DNA of 64,000 bases from the NCBI GenBank assembly GCA_965203465.1, contig CBDBCR010000003.1, forward strand, positions 256,001-320,000, given 5' to 3'. Below the pieces are notes generated by a model. It made no database searches. It had not been told where the DNA came from and saw only the letters and a program-made list of their open reading frames with translations. The stretch is from Nitrosopumilaceae archaeon (GTDB lineage: Archaea; Thermoproteota; Nitrososphaeria; Nitrososphaerales; Nitrosopumilaceae). Position numbers and translations under genes: made by a program. Below, one piece after another: positions 16,945-60,703 of the stretch (position 1 is its first letter; the number at the start of each line of letters is the position of its first letter).

Positions 16945-19584
16945 CTACGGCCGGCGCGACAGGCGCCTGTACGCCAGAACGGCCGCTGCCGGCGATCCCA
17001 GAAGCGAGGCGTTGAACATTATCACCAGCGAGCCGAGCATGACCGTCTGGGCCTCGGATTCTGCCAATTCCATGATTCCCAGCGACCAGAGCGCCGGCTG
17101 CAAGGACACCCGGACGGCCTCCTTGAAGGCCGGGCTGGACCTCTCGAGGTCGGCGACGGCCGGCGAGAACGCGTAATAGAACTGGTTGAAACCGGACATG
17201 AACGCAGAGCCGGCGCCCGTCGAGAGCGCGCCGTCTCGGATCTCGCGCAGCCGCTGCACCTGCTCGGCCGTCTCGGTTCCGTACGCGGCAGTAGCTATGA
17301 GGCAGCCGCCGCCCTCGTCTGCCGGAACCGGCGTGCAGGTTCCGTCGTCTGCGAGGAACGTGCCCGGCCCGCAGACCGGCTCGGCGGTCTCTGGCTCGTC
17401 GGTGATCGGCTCCTGCGTGATCGGCGCTGCGGGCTCCGGCTCGGGTGCAGGCGGCTCTGGATCCTCGGGCGGCGCGGCCGGAGCTGCCGGCTCTACTACA
17501 GGCTCGGCGGGCGGCGCGGGCTGCTCGGCCGGCTCTTGGCGCTCGGCCTCTTGCCGCTCGGGCTCCTGCACCTCGAAGGGCTGCGAGGCCGCCCTCGGCT
17601 CGGGCACGTCGAAGGTCCTCGTCCCGGTGCAAGAGTCGATGTTTACCGATTCGGTGTCCGACGCTATGGTGCGGTTCGATACGAGCGTGGCAGAGATCCT
17701 CGCGAACGACTCCGACGAGCCGAACGGCGCGGTGAATTCGCCGTACCCGCCGACTTCTCCAGACTGCGTCATGCGGACCACGCCGGCCACCGGCATGCGG
17801 AGCGTCACGTCCAGAGAGCCCGACGACGGGCCGGCGACCACCGTCACGGTGCCAGCCTCGCAGTCCCACGAGGCAGACCTGATATAGACCGCTTCTGTTC
17901 CCGCGCCCCCGTCCAGCGTCGTTCCCGAGACCCGGGCGCTGCCGCCCCCGCCTCCGCCGCCACCGCCGCCACCGCCTCCGCCGCTGGCTGCGGTTCTCTG
18001 CGGGGGCGCCGCGACATCGAGGGTCGCGCGCTCTGCAGGGGCGGCTGGCGGCGCGGTCTGCGTGGTGTACGAGACCTGCCACCTGCCGTCGATGTACCTG
18101 AGCGTCTCGTAGGCCGCAGAGGCCAAGTCGCCCCTGGCGTCGAGCTGCGCGCTTCCCATCAGCCCGCGGTGCCCGAGGGCCGCGGCCGGCACAGCGTCGC
18201 CCAAGCCGCCCTCTCCCGTCACCCTCGTGGAATCGGACAGCACTATGGCCTTGCCCAGCACCTGCACCGAATCGTAGGCGGCGTACGCGCCCGAATAGAC
18301 GCGCGTCTGCCGATCGGTTATGCTCAGCCCGTCCTGTATCGCCTCGGTCACCGTCCGGAACGAGGGGTGGCTGCGGTCTGGCGCGTCGTCGATTACGGTA
18401 AACTTGTTCTTTACGAACTCCAGCACCCCGGCCGACGCGCCGTCGGTGACCGGCCAAAACTGCGACCCGTACCAGTCCAGCGCCGCAAGCGCCGGATCCG
18501 CGGCGGCGGCCTCGACGATGAGCGCGCCGTCGGTTGCGAACGGCGCGAGCAGCACGACGGCCTTGCCCCCCGAGGCGGCGGTCGCTATTTCCGACGCGAC
18601 CGACGCGCCGCTGCCCAGCGCGGTTATGGCGGCAGGATCGTAGGCGACGGGCACCACGCGTATGCCCGAGGCGTTGCGCTGCACCGATTCCAGCAGGGAA
18701 GTTCCCCACGGCTCGCCGTCCCGGTGGACCACCACGACGGTCTGCACTCCCTGCCCGGCTAGCCTGCCTATGAAGAACTCGCCCTGGTTCGCAGTGGGCG
18801 AGAGGAACCTGAATATGTTGTCTTGCAGCGCGAGTGCCGACGATACCGAGCAGCAGCTCAGAAGCATCATGCCGTTGTCGCCCGCGTATTGGCGCATGCC
18901 TGCAAGCTCTGACGAGCTGACCGGCCCGAAGACTATCTTGGTGCCCAGCGCGTTCATGCCCTGGAGTTCGGAAAGGGCCGTCGCCGGCAGGGACGCGGTG
19001 TCGCGCGCGTCCATCTGCAACCGCCACTTTGAGCCAGTATCCGCGAACCTCGCGTTGAGATCCGCCACCCCCCTGACGAGCGCGGCCTCTGCGGGAAGCC
19101 CGTAGTCGGCCGCAAGGTCGCCGGTCCGCGCCACCAGGGCGCCCACCCGGACGGTCTCGGTCGGCGCCGGGGCCGCCGGGGCGGCCACTACCGTCACGGC
19201 GAACTCTTGGAACACCCCCGCCTGCCCCGCCGCCGTCGGCATGGCGTACAGGCTCGGAGAGTACGTCGCGCCGACCGCCGCGCCGGCCGGCACCGCCACG
19301 GTCATCTCCACGTCCAGCGTGTCGCCCGCCGCCATCTGCGCGCTCCGCGCGGACAGCTGCGCCGCCAAGGCGTCCCCGCCCCGCACTTCGAACGCCACCC
19401 CGGTAGCTACGGGCGAGGTGACGCGCAGCACCAGCACGCGCTGCTCGCCGGGGTACATTTCGATCTCTTTGTCGGAGGAATAGACCGGATCGTACCCGAG
19501 GCCGAACGCCTGCGGCACCGCAACGGCCGCCGCCAACAGGGTAGCGGTCAGGAGCGTGCGGTGCATTTTATCCACAACTTGCAA
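16945..19584 (-). CDS. Multidomain surface protein: Ig-like + branched-chain amino acid-type solute-binding domain + Gly/Pro linkers + CFI-box-CTERM
   Basis: Signal peptide; VRVGALVARTGDLA...YAAYDSV SBP core; poly-Gly; GGGCLIATAAYG; TM tail. Confidence 0.8.
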   Translation of the reverse strand: MQVVDKMHRTLLTATLLAAAVAVPQAFGLGYDPVYSSDKEIEMYPGEQRVLVLRVTSPVATGVAFEVRGGDALAAQLSARSAQMAAGDTLDVEMTVAVPAGAAVGATYSPSLYAMPTAAGQAGVFQEFAVTVVAAPAAPAPTETVRVGALVARTGDLAADYGLPAEAALVRGVADLNARFADTGSKWRLQMDARDTASLPATALSELQGMNALGTKIVFGPVSSSELAGMRQYAGDNGMMLLSCCSVSSALALQDNIFRFLSPTANQGEFFIGRLAGQGVQTVVVVHRDGEPWGTSLLESVQRNASGIRVVPVAYDPAAITALGSGASVASEIATAASGGKAVVLLAPFATDGALIVEAAAADPALAALDWYGSQFWPVTDGASAGVLEFVKNKFTVIDDAPDRSHPSFRTVTEAIQDGLSITDRQTRVYSGAYAAYDSVQVLGKAIVLSDSTRVTGEGGLGDAVPAAALGHRGLMGSAQLDARGDLASAAYETLRYIDGRWQVSYTTQTAPPAAPAERATLDVAAPPQRTAASGGGGGGGGGGGGGGSARVSGTTLDGGAGTEAVYIRSASWDCEAGTVTVVAGPSSGSLDVTLRMPVAGVVRMTQSGEVGGYGEFTAPFGSSESFARISATLVSNRTIASDTESVNIDSCTGTRTFDVPEPRAASQPFEVQEPERQEAERQEPAEQPAPPAEPVVEPAAPAAPPEDPEPPAPEPEPAAPITQEPITDEPETAEPVCGPGTFLADDGTCTPVPADEGGGCLIATAAYGTETAEQVQRLREIRDGALSTGAGSAFMSGFNQFYYAFSPAVADLERSSPAFKEAVRVSLQPALWSLGIMELAESEAQTVMLGSLVIMFNASLLGSPAAAVLAYRRLSRRP

Positions 19585-21247
19585 AGAACGTCATCGCCTG
19601 CGAAAGCGCGCCGTCCCCGGTGGGCAGCACCCTGCCGGAGTGAACCACCTTGAACTCTAGTTCGAAGTTTCCGGAGGGCGCCAAGTCGGATCCGACGGTG
19701 ACGAACTGGCCGGGCGCCAGCTCTACGAACTCGCCGCCCGCCTTTACGAACGTGGCCAGCGTGCGGTACTCGTTGTCGCCCGAGTCGGTCCACGCGTCCA
19801 CCCGCAGCCGCACGCTCTCGACTGTCGGGCTTCCGGCGTTGGTCACCGTCTGCGAGACTGCCGGCGACTCTCCGCCGGTCACCAAGTCGAACGACACGGT
19901 GTCGCCAATCGAGACGGCGCAGTCCGACTGCGACAGGGCTATGCCGGCCTGCTGCGGCGAGATCTGCGCGGTGGCCGTGCGGGCCGCGTCCGTATAGTAT
20001 GGCGAGTACGAGGCGCTGCCGCTGATCCTCTCGGCCGGGCCCCTGTCCCAGTAGTTGAACGGCGCGAAGACCGGGGCCGCCGACAGGTTCACCAGATCGT
20101 AGCCGGTGTTTTCTATGAACGAGTTCCTGAACACCGTGAGGAACTGATCTATGGGGGTGTCCACGACGCGGAATATGTCGAGCTGCTCGCCCAGGTTGTC
20201 CTGGTGGACGCCGCAGACGGAGCCGGCGCACAGCAGTATCCCGTTGTGGCTGTCCCGGACGACGTTGTCGTAGATGCGCACGTTCGAGCCGTCCCCTCCC
20301 CAGATCACGACGGCCGCTTCTGGCACGGTTTCCGGGGTCCCGTTCAGGTACCTCAGGGCGTTGTTGTTGCTTACGAATGTGTTGTCGTATATCGAGAGGC
20401 TCGAATCGGCGCCGGCCAGCTTGCCCACGTCGTCGAACGTCTGCTCCGTCGCCTTTTGCACCCCGAACGCCAGCACGTTGGAGATCGTGTTGCCGTTCAC
20501 GTGCGCGTTCACGAGGCCGGCTTTGGCCAGGTTGATCCCCGCGAACGTGACCGTGTCTATGGTGTTGTTGGATATGAACAGATCTTTGTACAGGCCCGTC
20601 TCCGACAGGCGGATGGCGGTGTACAGGCGGCTCGACTGCTGATCCACCGTGGAGCCGGCCGGATGCAGCATGCCGATGTCGCGGAACAGGTTGTCGGACA
20701 CGCGCAGGTTCGTAAAAGCGGCCTGTGGATTCTGGGGCGGCGTATGCGGCCAGGGCGTCGCGGTGTTTAGGCCGAGTCCGTGGTTGCCCGTGTTGGAGAA
20801 CGTGTTGTTTGACACCGTTACGTTGGTCCTGTCTCCCCAGCCTATCTCGATCACCGAGGGGCCATAGCTCAGCGGGGCGATGTCCCTGAACACCAGGTTC
20901 TGCATCGTGACGTCGTCGCCGCGGATCTGAAACCAGCTCTCGCCCGTTATGACGGCGCCGGCCTCTCCGGTCACCGTCATCGGCTTCGAGATGATGCTGT
21001 GGCTCAAATTCGCGTGCGTGCCGCTGGAAAACGTCACGGTGCCCCCCGCGGTGACATCGTTGAAAGCGGCCTGCACTGTGCTTGTCGCGCTACCCGCCGT
21101 GATCGTGATGGCGCTCTGCGCGTATGCTGCCGGGAACGCCGCGCAGTCGGCGCACGGATCGCCTACAGACAAGGCCGCGACTGCAATGGCCAAAACTACG
21201 GCAGGCGCTGAGAGTCGGATGAACCCGCACGGGTTGCGCTTGAGCAC
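19568..21247 (-). CDS. Secreted right-handed parallel beta-helix protein
   Basis: Signal peptide; repeated xxISNNT(F/I) / xIYDN stacks. Confidence 0.75.
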   Translation of the reverse strand: MLKRNPCGFIRLSAPAVVLAIAVAALSVGDPCADCAAFPAAYAQSAITITAGSATSTVQAAFNDVTAGGTVTFSSGTHANLSHSIISKPMTVTGEAGAVITGESWFQIRGDDVTMQNLVFRDIAPLSYGPSVIEIGWGDRTNVTVSNNTFSNTGNHGLGLNTATPWPHTPPQNPQAAFTNLRVSDNLFRDIGMLHPAGSTVDQQSSRLYTAIRLSETGLYKDLFISNNTIDTVTFAGINLAKAGLVNAHVNGNTISNVLAFGVQKATEQTFDDVGKLAGADSSLSIYDNTFVSNNNALRYLNGTPETVPEAAVVIWGGDGSNVRIYDNVVRDSHNGILLCAGSVCGVHQDNLGEQLDIFRVVDTPIDQFLTVFRNSFIENTGYDLVNLSAAPVFAPFNYWDRGPAERISGSASYSPYYTDAARTATAQISPQQAGIALSQSDCAVSIGDTVSFDLVTGGESPAVSQTVTNAGSPTVESVRLRVDAWTDSGDNEYRTLATFVKAGGEFVELAPGQFVTVGSDLAPSGNFELEFKVVHSGRVLPTGDGALSQAMTFFASCG

Positions 21248-21468
21248 CCCCCCCCCCGGAGGATACTATAAAAACCCAATGTTCCGACTCGGGTAAGCGG
21301 TCGGGCCTGAATTCAAGCACGTCCGATCCACGCGTAGCGCTTTTCCGTGACTAGGCTATCCCACGACTTGGCCGCTTGCCGACTCGGGCCGCGCGATCCT
21401 TCCCGGAGCCTGCCGGGCGGAGAAAAAGACGCGCGGCAAAAACCTCGGATCAGGCCGGCGTGTCCGGG

Positions 21469-55462: not shown

Positions 55463-56294
55463 CGGGCGCGCGTTCCGGCGGCCGGTTTGGCGAGTCGCGG
55501 ACGCGCGCAAGGATCCACCAGGTTCTCAACGCCGAGAGCGGCTTTGCGAATCTTGGCCCTCCTGGAATTTCCGGGCGCAAGCCACCCGACAGCGCGTCCG
55601 GCCGCTTCGCCTTGTAGAAGACAAGAGATCGGGGAGCTAAAACCAGAATTGGCCGGCGCCGCGGATCTGGGGCGCCCGGTTTGGCTCCGGAGGCGATCTC
55701 GCCCGAGCACGTACCCGACGCCATCGCGTCGCGCGATTCTGACGAAAGCGTTTTCTTGTGCAGGGGAGCGGCTGGCGGATCCGAAGGGCGGCCGGGCGCG
55801 CGGTCTTGCGCCCGGTTCGCGCGTCTTGGAAAGAAACGGCGGCCGACCGGAGCGCCGCAAAAGAGTCGAGGCTTGTGCGCCGATACGGGAGCGCGTCGAT
55901 CCGCCGCGGGCCTGCGCGGAGCGGCGTCCGGCCCCGAAAGACGCGGGCTTCTGCAAAAAGCCGCCGCGCGCGGGATGAGTCCGGCAGGCCCATCCGCGGC
56001 GTTGATCGCGGCCGCAAGAGCCCCGGAACGGGCCTGCCGGCGGCTGGTGGCGCCCCGGCTGCGCCCGGCGCCGCGCAGTTCTCCAACGCCGTCGGCCCGG
56101 CTGCGCATAGCCGCGTGCGCCGTACGCGGCAGAACCGCCGCGGGCCGAGATCCCCGAGCCGCGGCCCTGTCTGCGCGCCGCCTAGCCGGCGCAGGCGGGC
56201 GCCGGGCGCGGGCAGGGGGTACTGTTGCGAATTCGTGGGGTAGCCCCCGGCTAGGGCGCGGAGCCGGGTTAGGCATATATCGAATCCAGAAAGC

Positions 56295-56384
56295 CGCCAA
56301 GCGCGGGATTCGAACCCGCGAAAGGCTTTCGAGACCTTGCCGCCAGTCAGGGCGGTGCCCATCCAAGCGTGCAGGCGCGCCGGC
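56295..56384 (-). ncRNA. tRNA-like (Ser/Leu-class) element, non-canonical
   Basis: Perfect T-arm GCGGG-TTCGAAT-CCCGC, long variable arm, stem CCGCC/GGCGG with 6-nt loop CTGACT, imperfect acceptor stem. Confidence 0.5.
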
Positions 56385-56414
56385 CGGAACTGGCCGGGCG
56401 CGGCCTGCGCGATC

Positions 56415-57317
56415 TTAGACCCGCTTCCCCGTCTGGGCGAGGTACCGGCTCCCGTTCTGGATCATAGTCCGCCACTTGTCGGCCCCCTCGATGAAGATCC
56501 CGGCTTCCTCGCCGGGCGTCCGCTTCAAGGTCTGGTGCTTGCGGGCGTGGTTGTAATTCACGCGGATGCCGCAGAACTCGCGGGTGTGCTTGCCTTGCAG
56601 GCCCCTGAACGTCTTTTCCCTGTCCCGTATCGTACCGTTGAGCCGTTCCATGCGGTTGTTGTTGTCCTTGCCCTTGCGGACGCCGGTGATGTGTATTTCC
56701 CGCACGTGCTCCGTCAACGGCAATACCTCCTCGGCGGCCACCCGGTACGAGTTCAATCCGTCGGTTATCATCCTGGCCGGTATCTTGCCTGTTTGCTCCA
56801 GCGTATCCTGAAACAGCTTGGTCGCGTCGTGGCCCTCCTTGCGGTCGGCCAGGTCCGAGGCCAGCCAATATCTGGTATCGTTGTCCATCGAAGAGAAAAG
56901 ATACATGAGGTCGCCGGCCACCTTTACGTAGAGCTCGTCGGCGCGGTAGTCGCTGCCTGTCTCGGGCTTTTGCCTGTCCATGTAGGCGGCCGCCACGGGG
57001 CCGTATCTTTCCACCCACCTGAATACCGCAGACCTGTCGATCTTGAGCCCCCGCGCCTCCAGGTTCTCGGCAATCTTGCCCACCGAGAGGCCGGAAAAGT
57101 GGAGCCGCAGGCATTCGGTGATCACGGCCCGCGAGTACCGCCTGTACCTGAACCCGAACCGGGCCGAAAACACCCGGTTGCATTCGCGGCACTTCATCAG
57201 TTGCGTGATACCGGACTTGTTCTGCCGTATGCCGTTCTTGTAGATGTGCCTGGAATTGCAGTACTTGCACTTTGTCGGCGTGTCGAAATTCTTTACCGTC
57301 TTTACGTATCTCTGCAT
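56415..57317 (-). CDS. IS6-family DDE transposase with N-terminal Zn finger
   Basis: CKYC...CREC, AVFRWVERY, ADELYVKV, ITDG, NNRMERLN motifs. Confidence 0.9.
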   Translation of the reverse strand: MQRYVKTVKNFDTPTKCKYCNSRHIYKNGIRQNKSGITQLMKCRECNRVFSARFGFRYRRYSRAVITECLRLHFSGLSVGKIAENLEARGLKIDRSAVFRWVERYGPVAAAYMDRQKPETGSDYRADELYVKVAGDLMYLFSSMDNDTRYWLASDLADRKEGHDATKLFQDTLEQTGKIPARMITDGLNSYRVAAEEVLPLTEHVREIHITGVRKGKDNNNRMERLNGTIRDREKTFRGLQGKHTREFCGIRVNYNHARKHQTLKRTPGEEAGIFIEGADKWRTMIQNGSRYLAQTGKRV

Positions 57318-57353
57318 GCCCCTGGGTACGGGCCGTGGTAATAAAAACATTGC

Positions 57354-57409
57354 CAAGTAAATTGCCATGTGGAAAACGGGTCAAATTCATAAAGAGGTCA
57401 ATTTACTTG
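57354..57409. promoter_or_regulatory. 11-bp inverted repeat between divergent transposase and AbrB-like genes
   Basis: CAAGTAAATTG (57354-57364) and CAATTTACTTG (57399-57409). Confidence 0.55.
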
Positions 57410-57414
57410 CCTGT

Positions 57415-57597
57415 ATGAAAATAGGAACCAACGTGACCTCGCTCTCGCTGGCCGTCGAAAAGAGCTCCACGCTGCGCACGACCGTGCCGGCCGCGGTGGC
57501 CGACAAGCTCGGCCTCAAAAAGGGCGATCGCGTAAAGTGGGATTTCGACAAGGTGGACGGCGAGTGGTTCGCCACGGTCAGGAAGCGGCCGGAATGA
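57415..57597 (+). CDS. AbrB/MazE-fold DNA-binding protein
   Basis: LRTTVPAAVADKLGLKKGDRVKW signature. Confidence 0.8.
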   Translation: MKIGTNVTSLSLAVEKSSTLRTTVPAAVADKLGLKKGDRVKWDFDKVDGEWFATVRKRPE

Positions 57598-57680
57598 GCC
57601 TCAAGATAGCCCTGACCTTGATTTTCGTGGCGGGTGCGGGCCTTGCGCTGGTATCAGGCGTGATCGCGGCCATGCCGTGA
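57594..57680 (+). CDS. 28-aa hydrophobic peptide
   Basis: MSLKIALTLIFVAGAGLALVSGVIAAMP; ATGA overlap with the AbrB-like stop. Confidence 0.5.
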   Translation: MSLKIALTLIFVAGAGLALVSGVIAAMP

Positions 57681-57793
57681 ACGCCGTTATCTTGAAAGTG
57701 TTATAATTGTTAATAACGCTTGGCCACACTTAATAACGACTCAGTGCCCGCCCGCGCCGTGCTCCCGGAGGGTCGGGCTGTGAGGGCGGCCGA

Positions 57794-58802
57794 ATGTCCC
57801 TCTTAAAGCAGGCGCGCCGCCAAGTGCCGTTTTTGGACACGGTAAAGTGCGGCGACAGCGCCCAGATGCTCAGGTCGTTCCCCGACAATTCAGTCGATCT
57901 GGTGATCACGTCCCCGCCGTACTTCCAGCAGCGGGCGTACGGCTGGGGCGGAGCGGGTGAAGAGAAGCGCGTTGACGGGTACATAGACGCCGTCATGGAG
58001 GTATTCCAGCAGTGCGTCCGGATAACCAAGGACACGGGCAGCATAGTGTTCAACATGGGCGACAAGTACCTCAACGGCAGTCTGGCGCTGGTACCGTACA
58101 GGTTCGCCATAGAAGCAACCGACGGCGGGGGCGTCAAACTGGTGAACGACATCACGTGGGTGAAGTCCAACCCGACGCCTCGCCAGTTCCAGCGCAGGCT
58201 CGTGAGCAGCACGGAGCCGTTTTTCCACTTCGTGAAATCGGACGGCTATTTCTACAACATAGGCGCGTTCAAGGGGGGGGGGGGACGCGCGCGACGGCAA
58301 GCCGCCAAAAAACACGACGATCGGGGGCCGGTACAAGGATCTCGTCAAAAAGTCGGATCTGACGCCGCGCCAGAAGCGGCTCGCCCTGGCCGCGCTGGCC
58401 GAGACCGTCCAAGAGGTCAAGTCGGGCAAGATACACAGCTTCCGCATGAAAATACGGGGCATACACTCGCCGGCGTTCGGCGGCCAAGCCGGGGGCAGGC
58501 AGATCCAGATTGAGAAAAACGGATTCACCATAATCAAGCTGTCCGGCAAGTCGCTGGCCCGCGATGTCGTGGTTCACAAGGTCGAGAGCCTGAAGTGGAA
58601 CGACCACCCGGCCATATACCCAGAGAAAATAATACGCGACATGATAGAGCTGCTCACGCCCGAAGGCGCCGTAGTGATCGATCCGTATATGGGGAGCGGC
58701 ACGACCGGCGTGGCCGCCAAGACCGCCGGGCGCCGGTGGGCCGGGATAGACATCAACCCCGAATACTGCGAGGCGGCCAACAGGAGGATCGGCAAAGCGT
58801 GA
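57794..58802 (+). CDS. N4-cytosine/N6-adenine DNA methyltransferase (beta class), frameshifted at G12
   Basis: TSPPY in the first frame; HPAIYP and DPYMGSGTT in the +1 frame; G run at 58273-58284 at the junction. Confidence 0.88.
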
Positions 58803-59902
58803 ACGACGGCTTGGACACGTACAGGCAGAAACTGGAAGGCTGTCTGGAAAAGGCCAAGGACGGAGGCGCGCCGATCGACGACGAGACGGCCGGGATGGTG
58901 CGGATCGTCGTGGACAATTCCGGCAACGCCACGGGCGTCCTAGCCGTCACGCTCACGTCCCTGTTGAAAAAATCGATCGACCGGGGGCAGGATGTCCGCA
59001 TGCATCAATTCCAGATGCCGGGCGGCTATTCGGGGCGGGGGCTGGACAGCAAGGTCGTGACGCCGTGGCTGAAAAGGCACTATTTCCCGGCCATGCGTTC
59101 GGGCTCCGGCTGGCTCACGCGCTCGCTGGAGCAGGCCGTGCCGTACACGCTGGATTATCCCGGCAAGATCAACCCGCCGCCGGTCAAGGCGGCGTTTCTC
59201 GGGATTTTGGACGCGGTGCAGGACGGGGCTGATCCGGACGCGCTCATAGTATATTTCGCCGAGAGGCTGATCGAGAAACGGGAGCGGGAGCGCGTCGATC
59301 TCACGCTTCCGGCGGGCAGGCGCATAAACGACATAGTGGACATGCTCGGCAGGCATTTCACGGCCGACTACGGGGGCGCGCACGGGGCCGCCCGCCTGCC
59401 GGTGCTTGCCATATACGCGGCCTACGAGCAGATGATGGCAGAGTTGCGCCGCTACAAGGGGTGCGAGCTGAGGCCCATGCAGCACCACACGGCGGCAGAC
59501 GCCAAGACCGGCACCGTGGGGGACATAGAGGTCGAGGACGGGGGCGGCAGGCTGTTCGAGGCGCTGGAAATCAAGCACGGGCAGGCCATAACGCTGGCAA
59601 TGGTCGAGAACGCCTACGAGAAGTTCAGATCGGAGGGTATAAAACGGTATTACGTTCTCACCACGCACGAGGACTATCAAGGATCTGATGATATGACCGA
59701 CAAGATACTGGAAATCCACAGGAACACCGGGTGTCAGGTGATCGTCAACGGTGTCATGCATACGCTCAGGTACTACCTGAGGCTGCTTGACGACCCGACG
59801 GACTTTCTGCGCCGGTACGTCGACCAGCTCAACCAGGATCCCACGGTGCTGTACGAACACAAGTCCGAATGGAACAGGATAGCCGGAGGCGCGTTGGTAT
59901 GA
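58799..59902 (+). CDS. Putative type II restriction endonuclease (PD-(D/E)xK)
   Basis: GTGA overlap with the MTase stop; GDIEV...EALEIKH nuclease-like motif. Confidence 0.7.
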   Translation: MNDGLDTYRQKLEGCLEKAKDGGAPIDDETAGMVRIVVDNSGNATGVLAVTLTSLLKKSIDRGQDVRMHQFQMPGGYSGRGLDSKVVTPWLKRHYFPAMRSGSGWLTRSLEQAVPYTLDYPGKINPPPVKAAFLGILDAVQDGADPDALIVYFAERLIEKRERERVDLTLPAGRRINDIVDMLGRHFTADYGGAHGAARLPVLAIYAAYEQMMAELRRYKGCELRPMQHHTAADAKTGTVGDIEVEDGGGRLFEALEIKHGQAITLAMVENAYEKFRSEGIKRYYVLTTHEDYQGSDDMTDKILEIHRNTGCQVIVNGVMHTLRYYLRLLDDPTDFLRRYVDQLNQDPTVLYEHKSEWNRIAGGALV

Positions 59903-60126
59903 TGGTGGGCATATCCGAACTGATAAGAAACGTGTTCAGCGACGGCGAGATACACACGCTGGAGGAGGCGTATCTGGCGGTGCTGGCGAGGATGAAGGCG
60001 GCGGAGGTCGAAGTAAGCGACGGCACCGTGCGCCACCGCGTCAGGAGCCGGGTACATGGCCTACACAAAAGCGGCGCAATCAAGCGCGTCGGGCCGGCGG
60101 CTTACATACTCAACAAGGACGGGTAG
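59899..60126 (+). CDS. Small winged-helix-like protein
   Basis: HTLEEAY...TVRHRVRSRVHGLHKSGAIKRVGPAAY pattern; ATGA-like overlap with the upstream gene. Confidence 0.55.
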   Translation: MMVGISELIRNVFSDGEIHTLEEAYLAVLARMKAAEVEVSDGTVRHRVRSRVHGLHKSGAIKRVGPAAYILNKDG

Positions 60127-60356
60127 GCTGCCGCGCCGATGATCGGGGGCGCGAATTGGAAGCGGCACCGTCGCGCTTCTAGCACGTCGGTACGGGCGTC
60201 CCGGTTCCCGTGCGGGACTCGGGCAGGCGCGCGTCGGCCGGCCCGTGCTTCGTCATGTCCGTGAACGCCGGCCTCACCCTGCCGCCGACGGCCTTGAGCG
60301 TCCCAACGGCCTCTTCGAGGCCCACGCCGTACCAGTGCATCGGGCCGCGCGCCGCC

Positions 60357-60578
60357 CTACCAAAAAACCATGTCCGTCTTTATTTCATTGGATTCCGACC
60401 TTACCGTGACGCGGCGCTTCAGCTTGCCGTCTTTGCCGCGTTCGTACCTCCAGGCCGTCCCGTCGCCCCGGTGCACGGTGAGCGTCTTTACCGGCTCCCC
60501 GTCGTAGACGCGGCGGCGGAAAATCTGGAGGGGTGGCCGCCACTTCGCTTCCACTGCCGGCGATCGCCGAGCGCCCAT
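60357..60578 (-). CDS. Hypothetical protein (cargo)
   Basis: 73-aa ORF with TTAAA upstream, inside the right TIR. Confidence 0.4.
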   Translation of the reverse strand: MGARRSPAVEAKWRPPLQIFRRRVYDGEPVKTLTVHRGDGTAWRYERGKDGKLKRRVTVRSESNEIKTDMVFW

Positions 60579-60703
60579 TTAAGAGCCGGGCTTCTGGCCT
60601 CTGGCCGCGCCATGCCTAGCCGGGGGCTACCCCACGAATTCGCAACAGTGCCGGGCAGGGCCGCCACCGAACGGTTAATAGCGGGAGGGCCGGGCGGCCG
60701 GCC

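Follow-up and report, generated by a model that had tools for sequence, protein, structure and literature searches.

A G12 tract in the methyltransferase gene of a transposon-borne archaeal restriction-modification operon: a candidate phase-variable switch

The window analysed here (the whole stretch of 64,000 nucleotides from a Nitrosopumilaceae archaeon; positions are numbered from its first letter) contains a beta-class DNA methyltransferase gene interrupted by a run of twelve G. Judging by their sequences, the methyltransferase, the adjacent putative nuclease and a small third ORF are a classical two-gene Type II restriction-modification (R-M) operon, which is carried as the cargo of a 4,435-bp IS6-like transposon. 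The features of the element are:

56218..56255, no strand: left 38-nt terminal inverted repeat, with an 8-bp duplication, GGGCAGGG, just before it (56210–56217)
56415..57368, minus strand: IS6-like DDE transposase, 317 aa (PF13610, E 5.4e-13)
57367..57597, plus strand: small protein of 76 aa with an AbrB/MazE fold, encoded ahead of the operon (PF04014, E 7.4e-07)
57794..58802, plus strand: gene for a beta-class N4/N6 DNA methyltransferase, of 335 aa when read with G11
58273..58284, plus strand: G12 homopolymer proposed as the slippage switch; the linker that holds it is variable and flanked by conserved blocks (alignment columns ~179–196)
58799..59902, plus strand: putative SacI-like PD-(D/E)XK restriction endonuclease gene, 367 aa, its GTG start overlapping the methyltransferase stop (GTGA)
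59899..60126, plus strand: third ORF, 75 aa, its ATG overlapping the nuclease stop (ATGA)
60615..60652, no strand: right 38-nt terminal inverted repeat, with the 8-bp duplication GGGCAGGG just after it (60653–60660)

An earlier note on this DNA, made from the letters alone, had claimed that the methyltransferase is split at the G run, that one G fewer restores the frame without any other lesion, and that the nuclease start overlaps the methyltransferase stop. All three claims hold. The run has twelve G, and the frame opened at 57794 closes at a stop at 58513; the resulting ORF (57794..58513, 239 aa) comprises 163 correct residues followed by a 76-residue out-of-frame tail. Read as G11, that is, with one four-letter step at the run and table 11 otherwise throughout, the gene encodes 335 aa with no internal stop. 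The translation across the junction is the one written in the note (...FKGGGDARDGKPPKN...), and the frame ends at the TGA at 58800–58802, overlapped by the nuclease GTG beginning at 58799.

The N-terminal half of the methyltransferase contains SPPY (motif IV) and matches positions 1–110 of the 221-position PF01555 profile (E 9.1e-21), and the C-terminal half contains DPYMGSGTT (motif I) and matches positions 159–220 (E 1.5e-21). The G11 protein has 2325 homologues at E≤0.001 among 7999 scored, the best at 72% identity, and aligns over its whole length with full-length homologues; no in-frame methyltransferase more than 72% identical was found among 5.8 billion proteins. Its closest solved relative is the N4-cytosine methyltransferase M.PvuII (E 6.5e-21), and its own target chemistry is probably also N4-cytosine. 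As the earlier note had proposed to check, homologues lack the run: a glycine run at this place is absent from all 16 aligned homologues, and none of the six family orthologues has a nucleotide run of at least 8 there.

For the 367-aa nuclease, no direct family match was found in Pfam or NCBIfam, nor any match in a PDB sequence search, and its SacI-like assignment is made through homologues. Most of its 2061 homologues are annotated as PF09566 (RE_SacI) in precomputed assignments, and one of them (P0126) scores above the PF09566 cut-off (24.9 vs 19.3 bits), whereas the protein itself falls below it. It keeps D242...E257-x-K259 and every one of the 70 columns that are invariant across 17 nucleases. 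An AGGAGG sequence is located 13 nt upstream of its GTG. The 75-aa third ORF gave no family match, and the AbrB/MazE-fold protein upstream of the operon is a possible regulator or antitoxin.

The inverted repeats of the carrier are 97% complementary. The transposase scores 123.3 bits against NF033587 (transpos_IS6; cut-off 125), and a copy 86% identical to it lies elsewhere in the genome (G000:C3:741223-742153). A cargo of 4.4 kb is unusual for an IS element. The element is variably present: a contig of a relative lacks it and runs directly from 56155 to 60658, at a depth of 14.4 vs ~7 for the element-bearing contigs. A second contig joint, 57737 to 60596, was distrusted (depth 2.9, with one side of only 44 nt).

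Seven family orthologues of the methyltransferase were compared. The nuclease is linked to the methyltransferase at four of them, and all four of these operons bear a run of at least 9, while none of the three orthologues without a nuclease match bears one. The runs are G12 in the methyltransferase (M) gene here, C10 in M (G061), G12 in the nuclease (R) gene (G099) and G9 in R (G065). In the three other species' operons the runs are at positions of their own, in M or R, and one of them is poly-C on the sense strand. M and R overlap in all four operons. In the G099/G065 pair, the 213 nuclease codons upstream of the run have a dN/dS of 0.096; the 152 downstream codons give 81% protein identity, a dN of 0.128 and a saturated dS. 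Both parts of the nuclease, before and after this run, are under purifying selection.

The length of the run differs between assemblies, as read from contigs, which lose minor variants. It is G12 in a 3381-nt contig at depth 76.8 with 0 differences (X2), and G11, the in-frame length, in a 3076-nt contig at depth 6.27 with 0 mismatches and 1 gap (X3, from the same sample as X2); this sample is possibly the source of the genome, in which case neither contig is independent of the genome assembly. No indel relative to G12 is listed for a contig from a third study at depth 2 (X4); regions of X4 and X1 that lack coverage did not enter the comparison. In a relative found in another study (X1; 45 differences in 1018 nt, ~95.6% identity), the run is G9 with no other indel, and G9 also follows from the FKGGG+RARRQ encoded by an independent contig of 3876 nt. 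Counting against a switch, neither of the two well-covered states (G12 here, G9 in the relative) is in frame, and the protein search gave no in-frame homologue above 72% identity. The earlier note had held that a run seen only as G11, or only as G12 with further decay, would speak against a switch. Neither was found: the contigs give G12, G11 and G9, and the gene has no extra indel, with the rest of M and R intact.

Long runs are a property of the genome as a whole. The number of G/C runs falls from 3890 at 5 nt to 934, 172, 20 and 3 at 6, 7, 8 and 9 nt, and then 49 runs of 10–18 nt are present, compared to 23 of 8–9 nt, giving a bimodal distribution. A base-composition model predicts 338 runs of 8–9 nt and ~4 of at least 12 nt, where 23 and 37 are observed; the G12 run exceeds chance in this genome. 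Six methylase genes have simple sequence repeats (SSRs) inside or ahead of them: one of Eco57I/MmeI type (G16), four of PF01555 type (G11, G14, G12 at 58273–58284, and another G12; the genome has 13 PF01555 loci), and a C5 methylase in a sister element, split at (AG)9. Other run-associated genes, among the 15 of 32 run-associated ORFs with family matches, include DndB, ParB_N, and giant FG-GAP and beta-helix/PKD ORFs (surface proteins). The run-bearing gene classes in other genera are the same (Eco57I type, PF01555, helicase, glycosyltransferase).

The SSR-bearing R-M genes are mostly one base above in-frame length as assembled. This +1 phase is found at all six R-M genes whose homology extends to either side of the repeat (the 58273–58284 locus, T40, the C5 methylase, L010, L013 and L014), at three more genes whose phase was taken from an ORF or ATG, and in the G9 relative. 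The run differs by exactly 3 nt (12 vs 9) in two orthologous pairs, with the phase kept. As assembled, none of the six SSR-bearing methylase genes in this genome is in frame. Elsewhere, in other genera, the +1 regularity is broken by an Eco57I-type gene at +2 and a PF01555 gene in frame.

The best reading of these data, and in our judgement a probable one, is a slipped-strand phase-variable R-M switch, as the earlier note had proposed; the contig-level length differences and the genome-wide set of runs support it. The locus has the features of a contingency locus, in that a one-unit change toggles the frame of an intact gene, the run is longer than predicted, and its length is polymorphic at the contig level. 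Three further observations fit such loci: the set of long runs, their enrichment in methylase, defence and surface genes, and the independent occurrence of runs in R-M operons that are orthologous. The G run in a tolerant linker of the methylase would be hypermutable, its length altered by slipped-strand mispairing at replication. G11 (and also G8 or G14) would yield the full enzyme, and G12, the majority state of the assembly, a truncated one. Switching would be reversible, and may have been selected as bet-hedging between phage defence on one side and the cost of restriction or openness to foreign DNA on the other.

In a two-gene Type II system, turning the methylase off while the nuclease is intact should be lethal, and how such a system tolerates a switch in M is a puzzle. 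Translation of the G12 frame would terminate 286 nt ahead of the nuclease start, which could lower nuclease synthesis and let M-OFF cells survive. The earlier suggestion that the OFF state uncouples nuclease translation agrees with the architecture, M and R overlapping in every orthologous operon with a nuclease, but the AGGAGG upstream of the GTG could allow the nuclease to initiate independently.

It is unlikely, in our view, that the frameshift is instead the first lesion of a pseudogene, in a transposon-borne R-M system that is being lost and whose run-length changes are neutral. Decay would agree with the out-of-frame state of both the main assembly and the relative, with the variable presence of the transposon among the relative's contigs, and with the fact that every SSR-bearing methylase of the genome is out of frame. 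However, two lineages ~4.5% apart show no second lesion across 335+367 codons. The nuclease retains every invariant residue, and that of the relative is identical at 349 of 365 positions and has the same start residue, against a DNA divergence of ~4.5%. The G099/G065 nuclease is under strong purifying selection downstream of its run even though both copies are 'broken', runs of 12 exceed chance in this genome, and loss of M first, with an active nuclease, would kill the cell.

A sequencing artefact, where the true run is G11, the gene is constitutively intact and G12 is a miscall (possibly a systematic +1), seems to us quite improbable. The low-depth G11 contig from the sample of X2 would fit a miscall, as would the excess of exactly one base at SSR-bearing R-M genes in near-closed assemblies and the orthologous pairs that differ by exactly 3, as functional genes would. 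Yet G12 is present in a contig at depth 77, the third study (depth 2) lists no indel relative to it, and the G9 of the relative occurs in two assemblies with short contigs. The C5 methylase split at (AG)9, a dinucleotide repeat and so of a type not prone to this error, is out of frame too. Moreover, a C15 run is in frame within a 971-codon ORF, and shorter runs are in frame in coding sequence at 84 of 172 (7 nt), 8 of 20 (G8/C8) and 0 of 3 (9 nt), counts that are uninformative on runs of 10 nt or longer.

The switch could be real and yet have been selected for an epigenetic role, resetting the expression of many genes, with restriction secondary. In the phasevarions of Haemophilus, Neisseria, Helicobacter and Moraxella (Type III mod, Type I hsd), a repeat likewise lies inside the methyltransferase ORF and turns it ON or OFF stochastically. 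Restriction in Type III and Type I systems requires the methylase subunit, making the OFF state intrinsically safe. The presence of several SSR-bearing methylase genes in one genome, as in multi-phasevarion bacteria, and the host-associated lifestyle are in keeping with such a role. In a phasevarion, restriction is typically absent or Mod-dependent, whereas the nuclease here is a separate protein, intact, conserved and overlapping with M. The two orthologues that bear the run in the nuclease instead point to control of restriction. We consider a primarily epigenetic role a long shot.

Recoding, in which the +1 genotype works through RNA polymerase slipping on the run and dropping one G, or through +1 slippage of the ribosome on GGG codons, and no heritable switch exists, is very improbable: it would provide a low, set level of methylase and so resolve the self-restriction paradox, and it fits the +1 phase at six of six R-M genes, its retention across 3-nt length differences and the purifying selection downstream of the G099/G065 run, but the regularity was spotted post hoc, other genera hold exceptions, a 1-nt slip cannot mend the (AG)9 case, the sense strand of one run reads poly-C, the runs share no 3' context, and most of the 49 long runs fall outside coding sequence. 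Likewise, we give little credence to the broader idea that +1 is the maintained working genotype of run-bearing methylases and nucleases in symbiotic archaea and slippage a programmed device that meters R-M expression.

The slipped-strand switch favoured here has bacterial counterparts. Type II methyltransferase ORFs of Helicobacter pylori are interrupted by homopolymer or AG repeats, and many of the repeat-interrupted Type II methyltransferases of bacteria are orphans or have dead nucleases. The (AG)9-split C5 methylase of the sister element is similar to the H. pylori cases; in contrast to them, the nuclease here is conserved in sequence. Campylobacter jejuni has a phase-variable Type IIG R-M gene, Cj0031. 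As in C. jejuni, dozens of G/C homopolymers lie in R-M, surface-structure and glycosyltransferase genes of a small genome, with frameshift switching and, in the archaeal genome here, no MutS-type repair found; 29 G/C loci of at least 7 are reported for strain NCTC11168 (PMC4965091). The present case differs in its archaeal host, its 65% G+C and its longer runs (10–18), and in that the run lies in an M gene distinct from the nuclease gene, the operon being of the two-gene Type II kind. Ordinary M.PvuII-like beta-class methyltransferases with SacI-family nucleases share PF01555, the motif order IV...I, SPPY and the gene order M then R, but not the internal G run or the carriage by an IS6-like transposon.

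The host is an ammonia-oxidising archaeon that lives with sponges and belongs to the Cenarchaeum/Nitrosopumilus family; AmoA is present and its relatives include Cenarchaeum. A MutS domain was not found in the 96.9%-complete genome. A NucS_C-domain match (63.7 bits, within a 496-aa frame) suggests that the host may have EndoMS-type mismatch repair.

Phase variation at many loci is seen as typical of bacteria adapted to a host. The locus and its ~50 sister runs suggest the same bet-hedging in an archaeal symbiont of animals, where it would serve phage defence and surface display; within one R-M family, run-based switching appears to have arisen repeatedly. Such symbionts should have heterogeneous methylomes, and annotation pipelines will label run-split genes of this kind as pseudogenes. 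The earlier note knew of no characterised archaeal case, and none of a repeat-switched R-M system emerged from the portions of the literature covered by our search. An archaeal R-M review cites phasevarion surveys and, in the passages concerned, mentions phase variation for bacterial surveys only (PMC10609329), while a 2025 review includes archaeal distributions in its list of future work (PMC11868660).

Phase calls based on ORFs alone are +2, +2, +2 and 0 in fragmented assemblies and mixed (+1, +2, 0) in near-closed ones; such calls carry much noise where the DNA is rich in G+C, and they leave the readings weighed above undistinguished. The out-of-frame tail of the assembled OFF phase showed no trend towards being shorter than that of the other OFF phase at 6 loci. 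A sigma-70 promoter scan, whose model is inapplicable to archaea, returned nothing. Thirteen of the 49 long runs lie 1–11 nt downstream of a TATA-like box, another difference from C. jejuni. The orientation of the long runs follows contig or replichore; GC skew is flat, and AT skew alone changes sign between contigs C1 and C3.

The operon lies on a transposon and consists of a methylase gene, a putative SacI-like nuclease gene and a small third ORF, arranged as follows.

56218–60652: cargo transposon
upstream of the operon, on the opposite strand: IS6-like DDE transposase (family match)
57367–57597: AbrB/MazE-fold ORF, 76 aa (family match), upstream of the operon
57794–58802 (+): methylase gene
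58273–58284: G12 tract inside the methylase gene
58799–59902 (+): nuclease gene, 367 residues; its GTG start overlaps the methylase stop (GTGA)
59899–60126: third ORF, 75 codons, no family match; its ATG overlaps the nuclease stop (ATGA)

Inspection of the sequence places the G12 tract at 58273–58284. The frame starting with the ATG at 57794 crosses it and ends at a stop at 58513 after 239 aa; shifting the frame by one base gives an open stretch that begins at 58284 and runs up to the stop codon at 58800–58802. Each part matches PF01555: the first 163 residues, with SPPY, at positions 1–110 of 221 (E = 9.1e-21), and the last 172 residues, with DPYMGSGTT, at positions 159–220 (E = 1.5e-21). Read as G11, the gene gives a 335-residue methylase with no further lesion, a single four-letter step being the sole departure from translation table 11. 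The earlier note had described the tract, both stops and the GTGA overlap in these terms, correctly throughout.

The 335-residue methylase has 2325 relatives at E≤0.001 among 7999 scored, and the 120 listed of these are 298–407 residues long. The closest is 72% identical, and the Cenarchaeum symbiosum A methylase 65%. Among solved structures (13 chains at E≤0.001), the best match is the N4-cytosine methyltransferase M.PvuII (E = 6.5e-21). In an alignment with 16 homologues, the tract falls in a variable linker with a conserved block on either side, and at this position all 16 lack a glycine run. The nuclease has no direct match in Pfam, NCBIfam or PDB. At E≤0.001, 2061 of 8000 scored proteins are homologous to it, most of which have a precomputed PF09566 (SacI restriction endonuclease) assignment, and one of them, P0126, clears the PF09566 cut-off in a direct profile scan. 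All 70 invariant columns in an alignment of 17 nucleases are kept, including D242 and E257-x-K259 of a PD-(D/E)XK pattern. The AbrB/MazE-fold ORF and the 75-codon ORF may be controller-type regulators of the operon.

The ends of the carrier are 38-nt inverted repeats, 97% complementary, and the same 8 bp, GGGCAGGG, occur on both flanks, which together define a 4,435-bp cargo transposon. It is variably present. A sister IS6-like cargo transposon in the same genome (L052, G000:C3:740800–745200; transposase 86% and end 92.5% identical) has another R-M pair as its cargo, consisting of a C5 methylase and a HindVP-like nuclease. The gene for this C5 methylase is interrupted precisely at an (AG)9 repeat (G000:C3:743153–743170), the genome's only non-CG dinucleotide repeat of at least 7 units, with the nuclease ORF following 5 nt later. 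The 201 codons upstream of the repeat correspond to PF00145 positions 3–166, and the 118 codons downstream, in another frame, to positions 231–323. As side observations, a relative's contig from one run of a sponge metagenome lacks the element, 56155 being joined to 60658 with 29 other letters, at depth 14.4, compared with about 5.5–7.5 for element-carrying contigs, and a weak joint from 57737 to 60596 (run X3, depth 2.9) would drop only the methylase, nuclease and third ORF.

The genome (2.26 Mb in 4 contigs, 65% G+C, 96.9% complete) encodes an archaeal AmoA (E = 1.9e-115) and belongs to a family that includes Cenarchaeum, the source of a methylase match, and the organism is thus an ammonia-oxidising archaeon. 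The public runs containing the locus comprise one sample of 'organism A' and one run of 'organism B'; the relative comes from a sponge metagenome. An enrichment of R-M systems and transposases has been reported for sponge-associated Thaumarchaeota; the words 'homopolymer', 'phase vari', 'frameshift' and 'pseudogene' are absent from the full text of one paper (PMC7848895).

Tract lengths were compared on assembled contigs, not raw reads. A 3381-nt contig of run X2 (depth 76.8) is identical to the window and has G12. Run X3, from the same sample, gives a 3076-nt contig (depth 6.27) with 0 mismatches and one G fewer, that is G11, the in-frame length; X2 and X3 are possibly the source of the assembly, and so not independent of it. 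Run X4 comes from another study and has no listed indel, but its depth here is only 2. A third study contributes run X1, which represents a relative with 45 differences across 1018 nt of the methylase and 49 across the nuclease; it has three G fewer (G9), without other indels in the methylase gene. An independent 3876-nt contig from a protein collection encodes a methylase fragment in which FKGGG is followed by the same out-of-frame tail, corresponding to the G9 state, and its nuclease is identical to that of the window at 349 of 365 residues. One locus has three recorded lengths (9, 11 and 12), with everything around the tract conserved. The relative's roughly 49 nucleotide and 16 amino acid differences in the nuclease, a rough figure without a computed dN/dS that assumes the X1 contigs and the 3876-nt contig to be one lineage, would point to purifying selection.

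Long runs form a distinct class in this genome. G/C runs of 5, 6, 7, 8 and 9 nt number 3890, 934, 172, 20 and 3, followed by 49 runs of 10–18 nt; A/T runs show no second length mode in the genome. Base composition predicts 338 runs of 8–9 nt and about 4 of at least 12, compared with 23 and 37 observed. The best open frames abutting runs were translated; 32 of them were scanned against profiles, and 15 have a family match. These comprise DNA modification proteins (an Eco57I/MmeI-type Type IIG methylase at G16, two PF01555 methylases, DndB and a ParB_N protein), surface-type proteins (three FG-GAP giants and three beta-helix/PKD proteins, one of them after the window run at 21247–21257) and others (a nucleotidyltransferase-domain ORF with its run in frame, a HIT protein and two weak matches). 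Many of the 17 frames without a match have at least 1000 codons; these are probably giant surface proteins. At G000:C1:345614–351120 and ten other loci, runs stand at the start of such frames (in one case inside), with no Pfam match. Runs occur at 4 of 13 PF01555 loci, including a G12-split gene at C3:752279 with homology on both sides (99 alignments upstream, 120 downstream in another frame) and a fourth gene with G14 23 nt past the nearest ATG. In all, simple repeats interrupt or directly precede the coding sequence in six methylase genes of this genome.

Of 61 genomes sampled from the family, this one counted, 28 contain runs of at least 10 G. Counted once per run, five near-closed genomes have 231, 59, 44, 17 and 11, and five others, at least three of them fragmented (80–210 contigs), have 15, 8, 8, 8 and 1. 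Assemblies seem to break at runs, as expected with heterogeneous or hard-to-read lengths. Among the 40 runs listed for the second set of genomes, 8 are no more than about 310 nt from a contig's first base, in G039 (80 contigs), G018 (210 contigs) and G059. Where runs fall inside genes in fragmented assemblies of other genera, those genes match an Eco57I-type methylase, a PF01555 methylase, a helicase and, with weaker support, a glycosyltransferase.

A search of 150 genomes gave methylase orthologues (58–65% identity, E≤1e-40) in 7 besides this one, and the best 6 of the 7 loci were inspected. Three have neither a nuclease match in the 1.5-kb flanks nor a run of at least 8. At the other three, a SacI-like nuclease adjoins the methylase and each operon has a run of its own: G12 inside the nuclease in G099, G9 at the same nuclease position in G065, of the same genus, and C10 near the methylase end, just upstream of motif I, in G061. 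All four two-gene operons in this small sample, the window's included, thus carry a run, at three positions, in either gene. The nuclease start overlaps the methylase end in all four (GTGA, ATGA, ATGA or 14 nt). Between the G099 and G065 nucleases silent sites are saturated, with dN/dS 0.096 over 213 codons upstream of the run; over the 152 codons downstream, protein identity is 81%, nucleotide identity 72.8% and dN 0.128, with dS not computable. Selection has thus long preserved the frame behind the 'frameshift' in both species. Such selection is hard to reconcile with decay into a functionless pseudogene, which we regard as unlikely. It is what a phase-variable gene would show, and also what an intact gene with a miscalled tract, or a recoded gene, would show.

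In all six R-M genes whose frame is fixed by homology on both sides of the repeat, the repeat is one base longer than the in-frame length. These are the window methylase, the G12 PF01555 gene, the (AG)9 C5 methylase and the three orthologous operons (L010, L013 and L014). The G9 relative is in the same phase, as are methylases with G16, G14 and G11, judged from the ORF or nearest ATG only. Repeat-bearing R-M genes lie at C1:61487, C1:337285, C1:966321 and C3:752279 of this genome. Two orthologous pairs differ by exactly three nucleotides (12 and 9). Exceptions occur in another genus (G016), where an Eco57I-type gene is two bases longer and a PF01555 gene is in frame, and non-R-M genes of this genome also deviate (one in frame, one two bases longer). 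The regularity was noticed post hoc, and some of the loci are not independent of one another. Its cause might be a miscalled length, recoding or selection for one particular OFF phase. A wrong homopolymer length in an intact gene would fit it; the (AG)9-split gene, in the same phase, counts against a pure homopolymer artefact, and we consider this explanation improbable. Production of the full-length enzyme by slippage, which the pattern could also fit, is least probable. The (AG)9 gene also counts against rescue by a one-base slip as a universal answer.

Taking the recorded lengths, the conserved surroundings and the genome-wide and orthologue patterns together, we favour, on balance and with some reserve, the phase-variable R-M switch that the earlier note had proposed. 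A variant in which its role is mainly epigenetic is given little weight. The mechanism would be slipped-strand mispairing during replication, with reversible, high-rate changes in length. No MutS (MutS_V) domain was found in the 96.9%-complete genome. The sole NucS_C-domain match (G000:C1:332922–333236, 63.7 bits) lies within a 496-aa frame, twice the usual NucS length; given this match, a mismatch-repair route other than MutS is conceivable.

If the methylase is OFF while a separate nuclease remains active, the cell would be expected to cleave its own DNA. One way out, in line with the uncoupling proposed in the earlier note, would be that ribosomes halt at 58513, 286 nt before the nuclease start, which would abolish coupled translation and perhaps, by polarity, the transcript as well. 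The conserved overlap of the two genes favours coupling, as does the arrangement of both transposon-borne operons, with the repeat in the methylase and the nuclease immediately behind; an AGGAGG 13 nt before the nuclease GTG argues against strict dependence on it. Alternatively, G12 might still yield full-length methylase through transcriptional or translational slippage, or the true majority genotype might be G11.

The proposed mechanism resembles the contingency loci and phase-variable R-M systems of bacteria. Repeats in the same gene classes (R-M, DNA modification and giant surface proteins) are established in Campylobacter, Helicobacter, Neisseria and Haemophilus. C. jejuni NCTC11168 is reported to have 29 poly-G/C loci (PMC4965091). 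For archaea, in the parts of these sources available, short A/T tracts were analysed in 18 genomes (PMC2831843), an R-M survey mentions phase variation for bacterial surveys only (PMC10609329), contingency loci are stated to have been described, with no example there (PMC12633550), and archaeal distributions are named as future work (PMC11868660). In agreement with the earlier note, no characterised archaeal repeat-switched R-M system was found in full-text searches of openly available main texts (including PMC13076061). The switch would thus bring the device to a new domain of life, with repeats gained independently by orthologous operons and placed in the methylase of a two-gene system.

The orientation of the runs is not random: 16 of 17 on C1 have G on the plus strand, and 23 of 24 on C3 have C on the plus strand. 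Both exceptions are methylase genes, that on C3 being the transposon-borne G12 of the window. AT skew changes sign between C1 and C3, and on a relative's contig (G061:C2) the listed runs as far as 640 kb are minus-strand and those from 924 kb onwards plus-strand. These patterns suggest that run orientation is linked to the direction of replication. Thirteen of the 49 runs are located 1–11 nt downstream of a TATA-like A/T stretch of at least 6, compared with 4 of 49 on the opposite side of runs and 4.9% of random 30-nt windows. One of these 13 is the second long run in the window, a minus-strand G11 at 21247–21257, which lies 9 nt downstream of TTTTTATA and directly precedes a 558-codon beta-helix ORF (19571–21244, minus strand); it may be a promoter or 5′-end switch.
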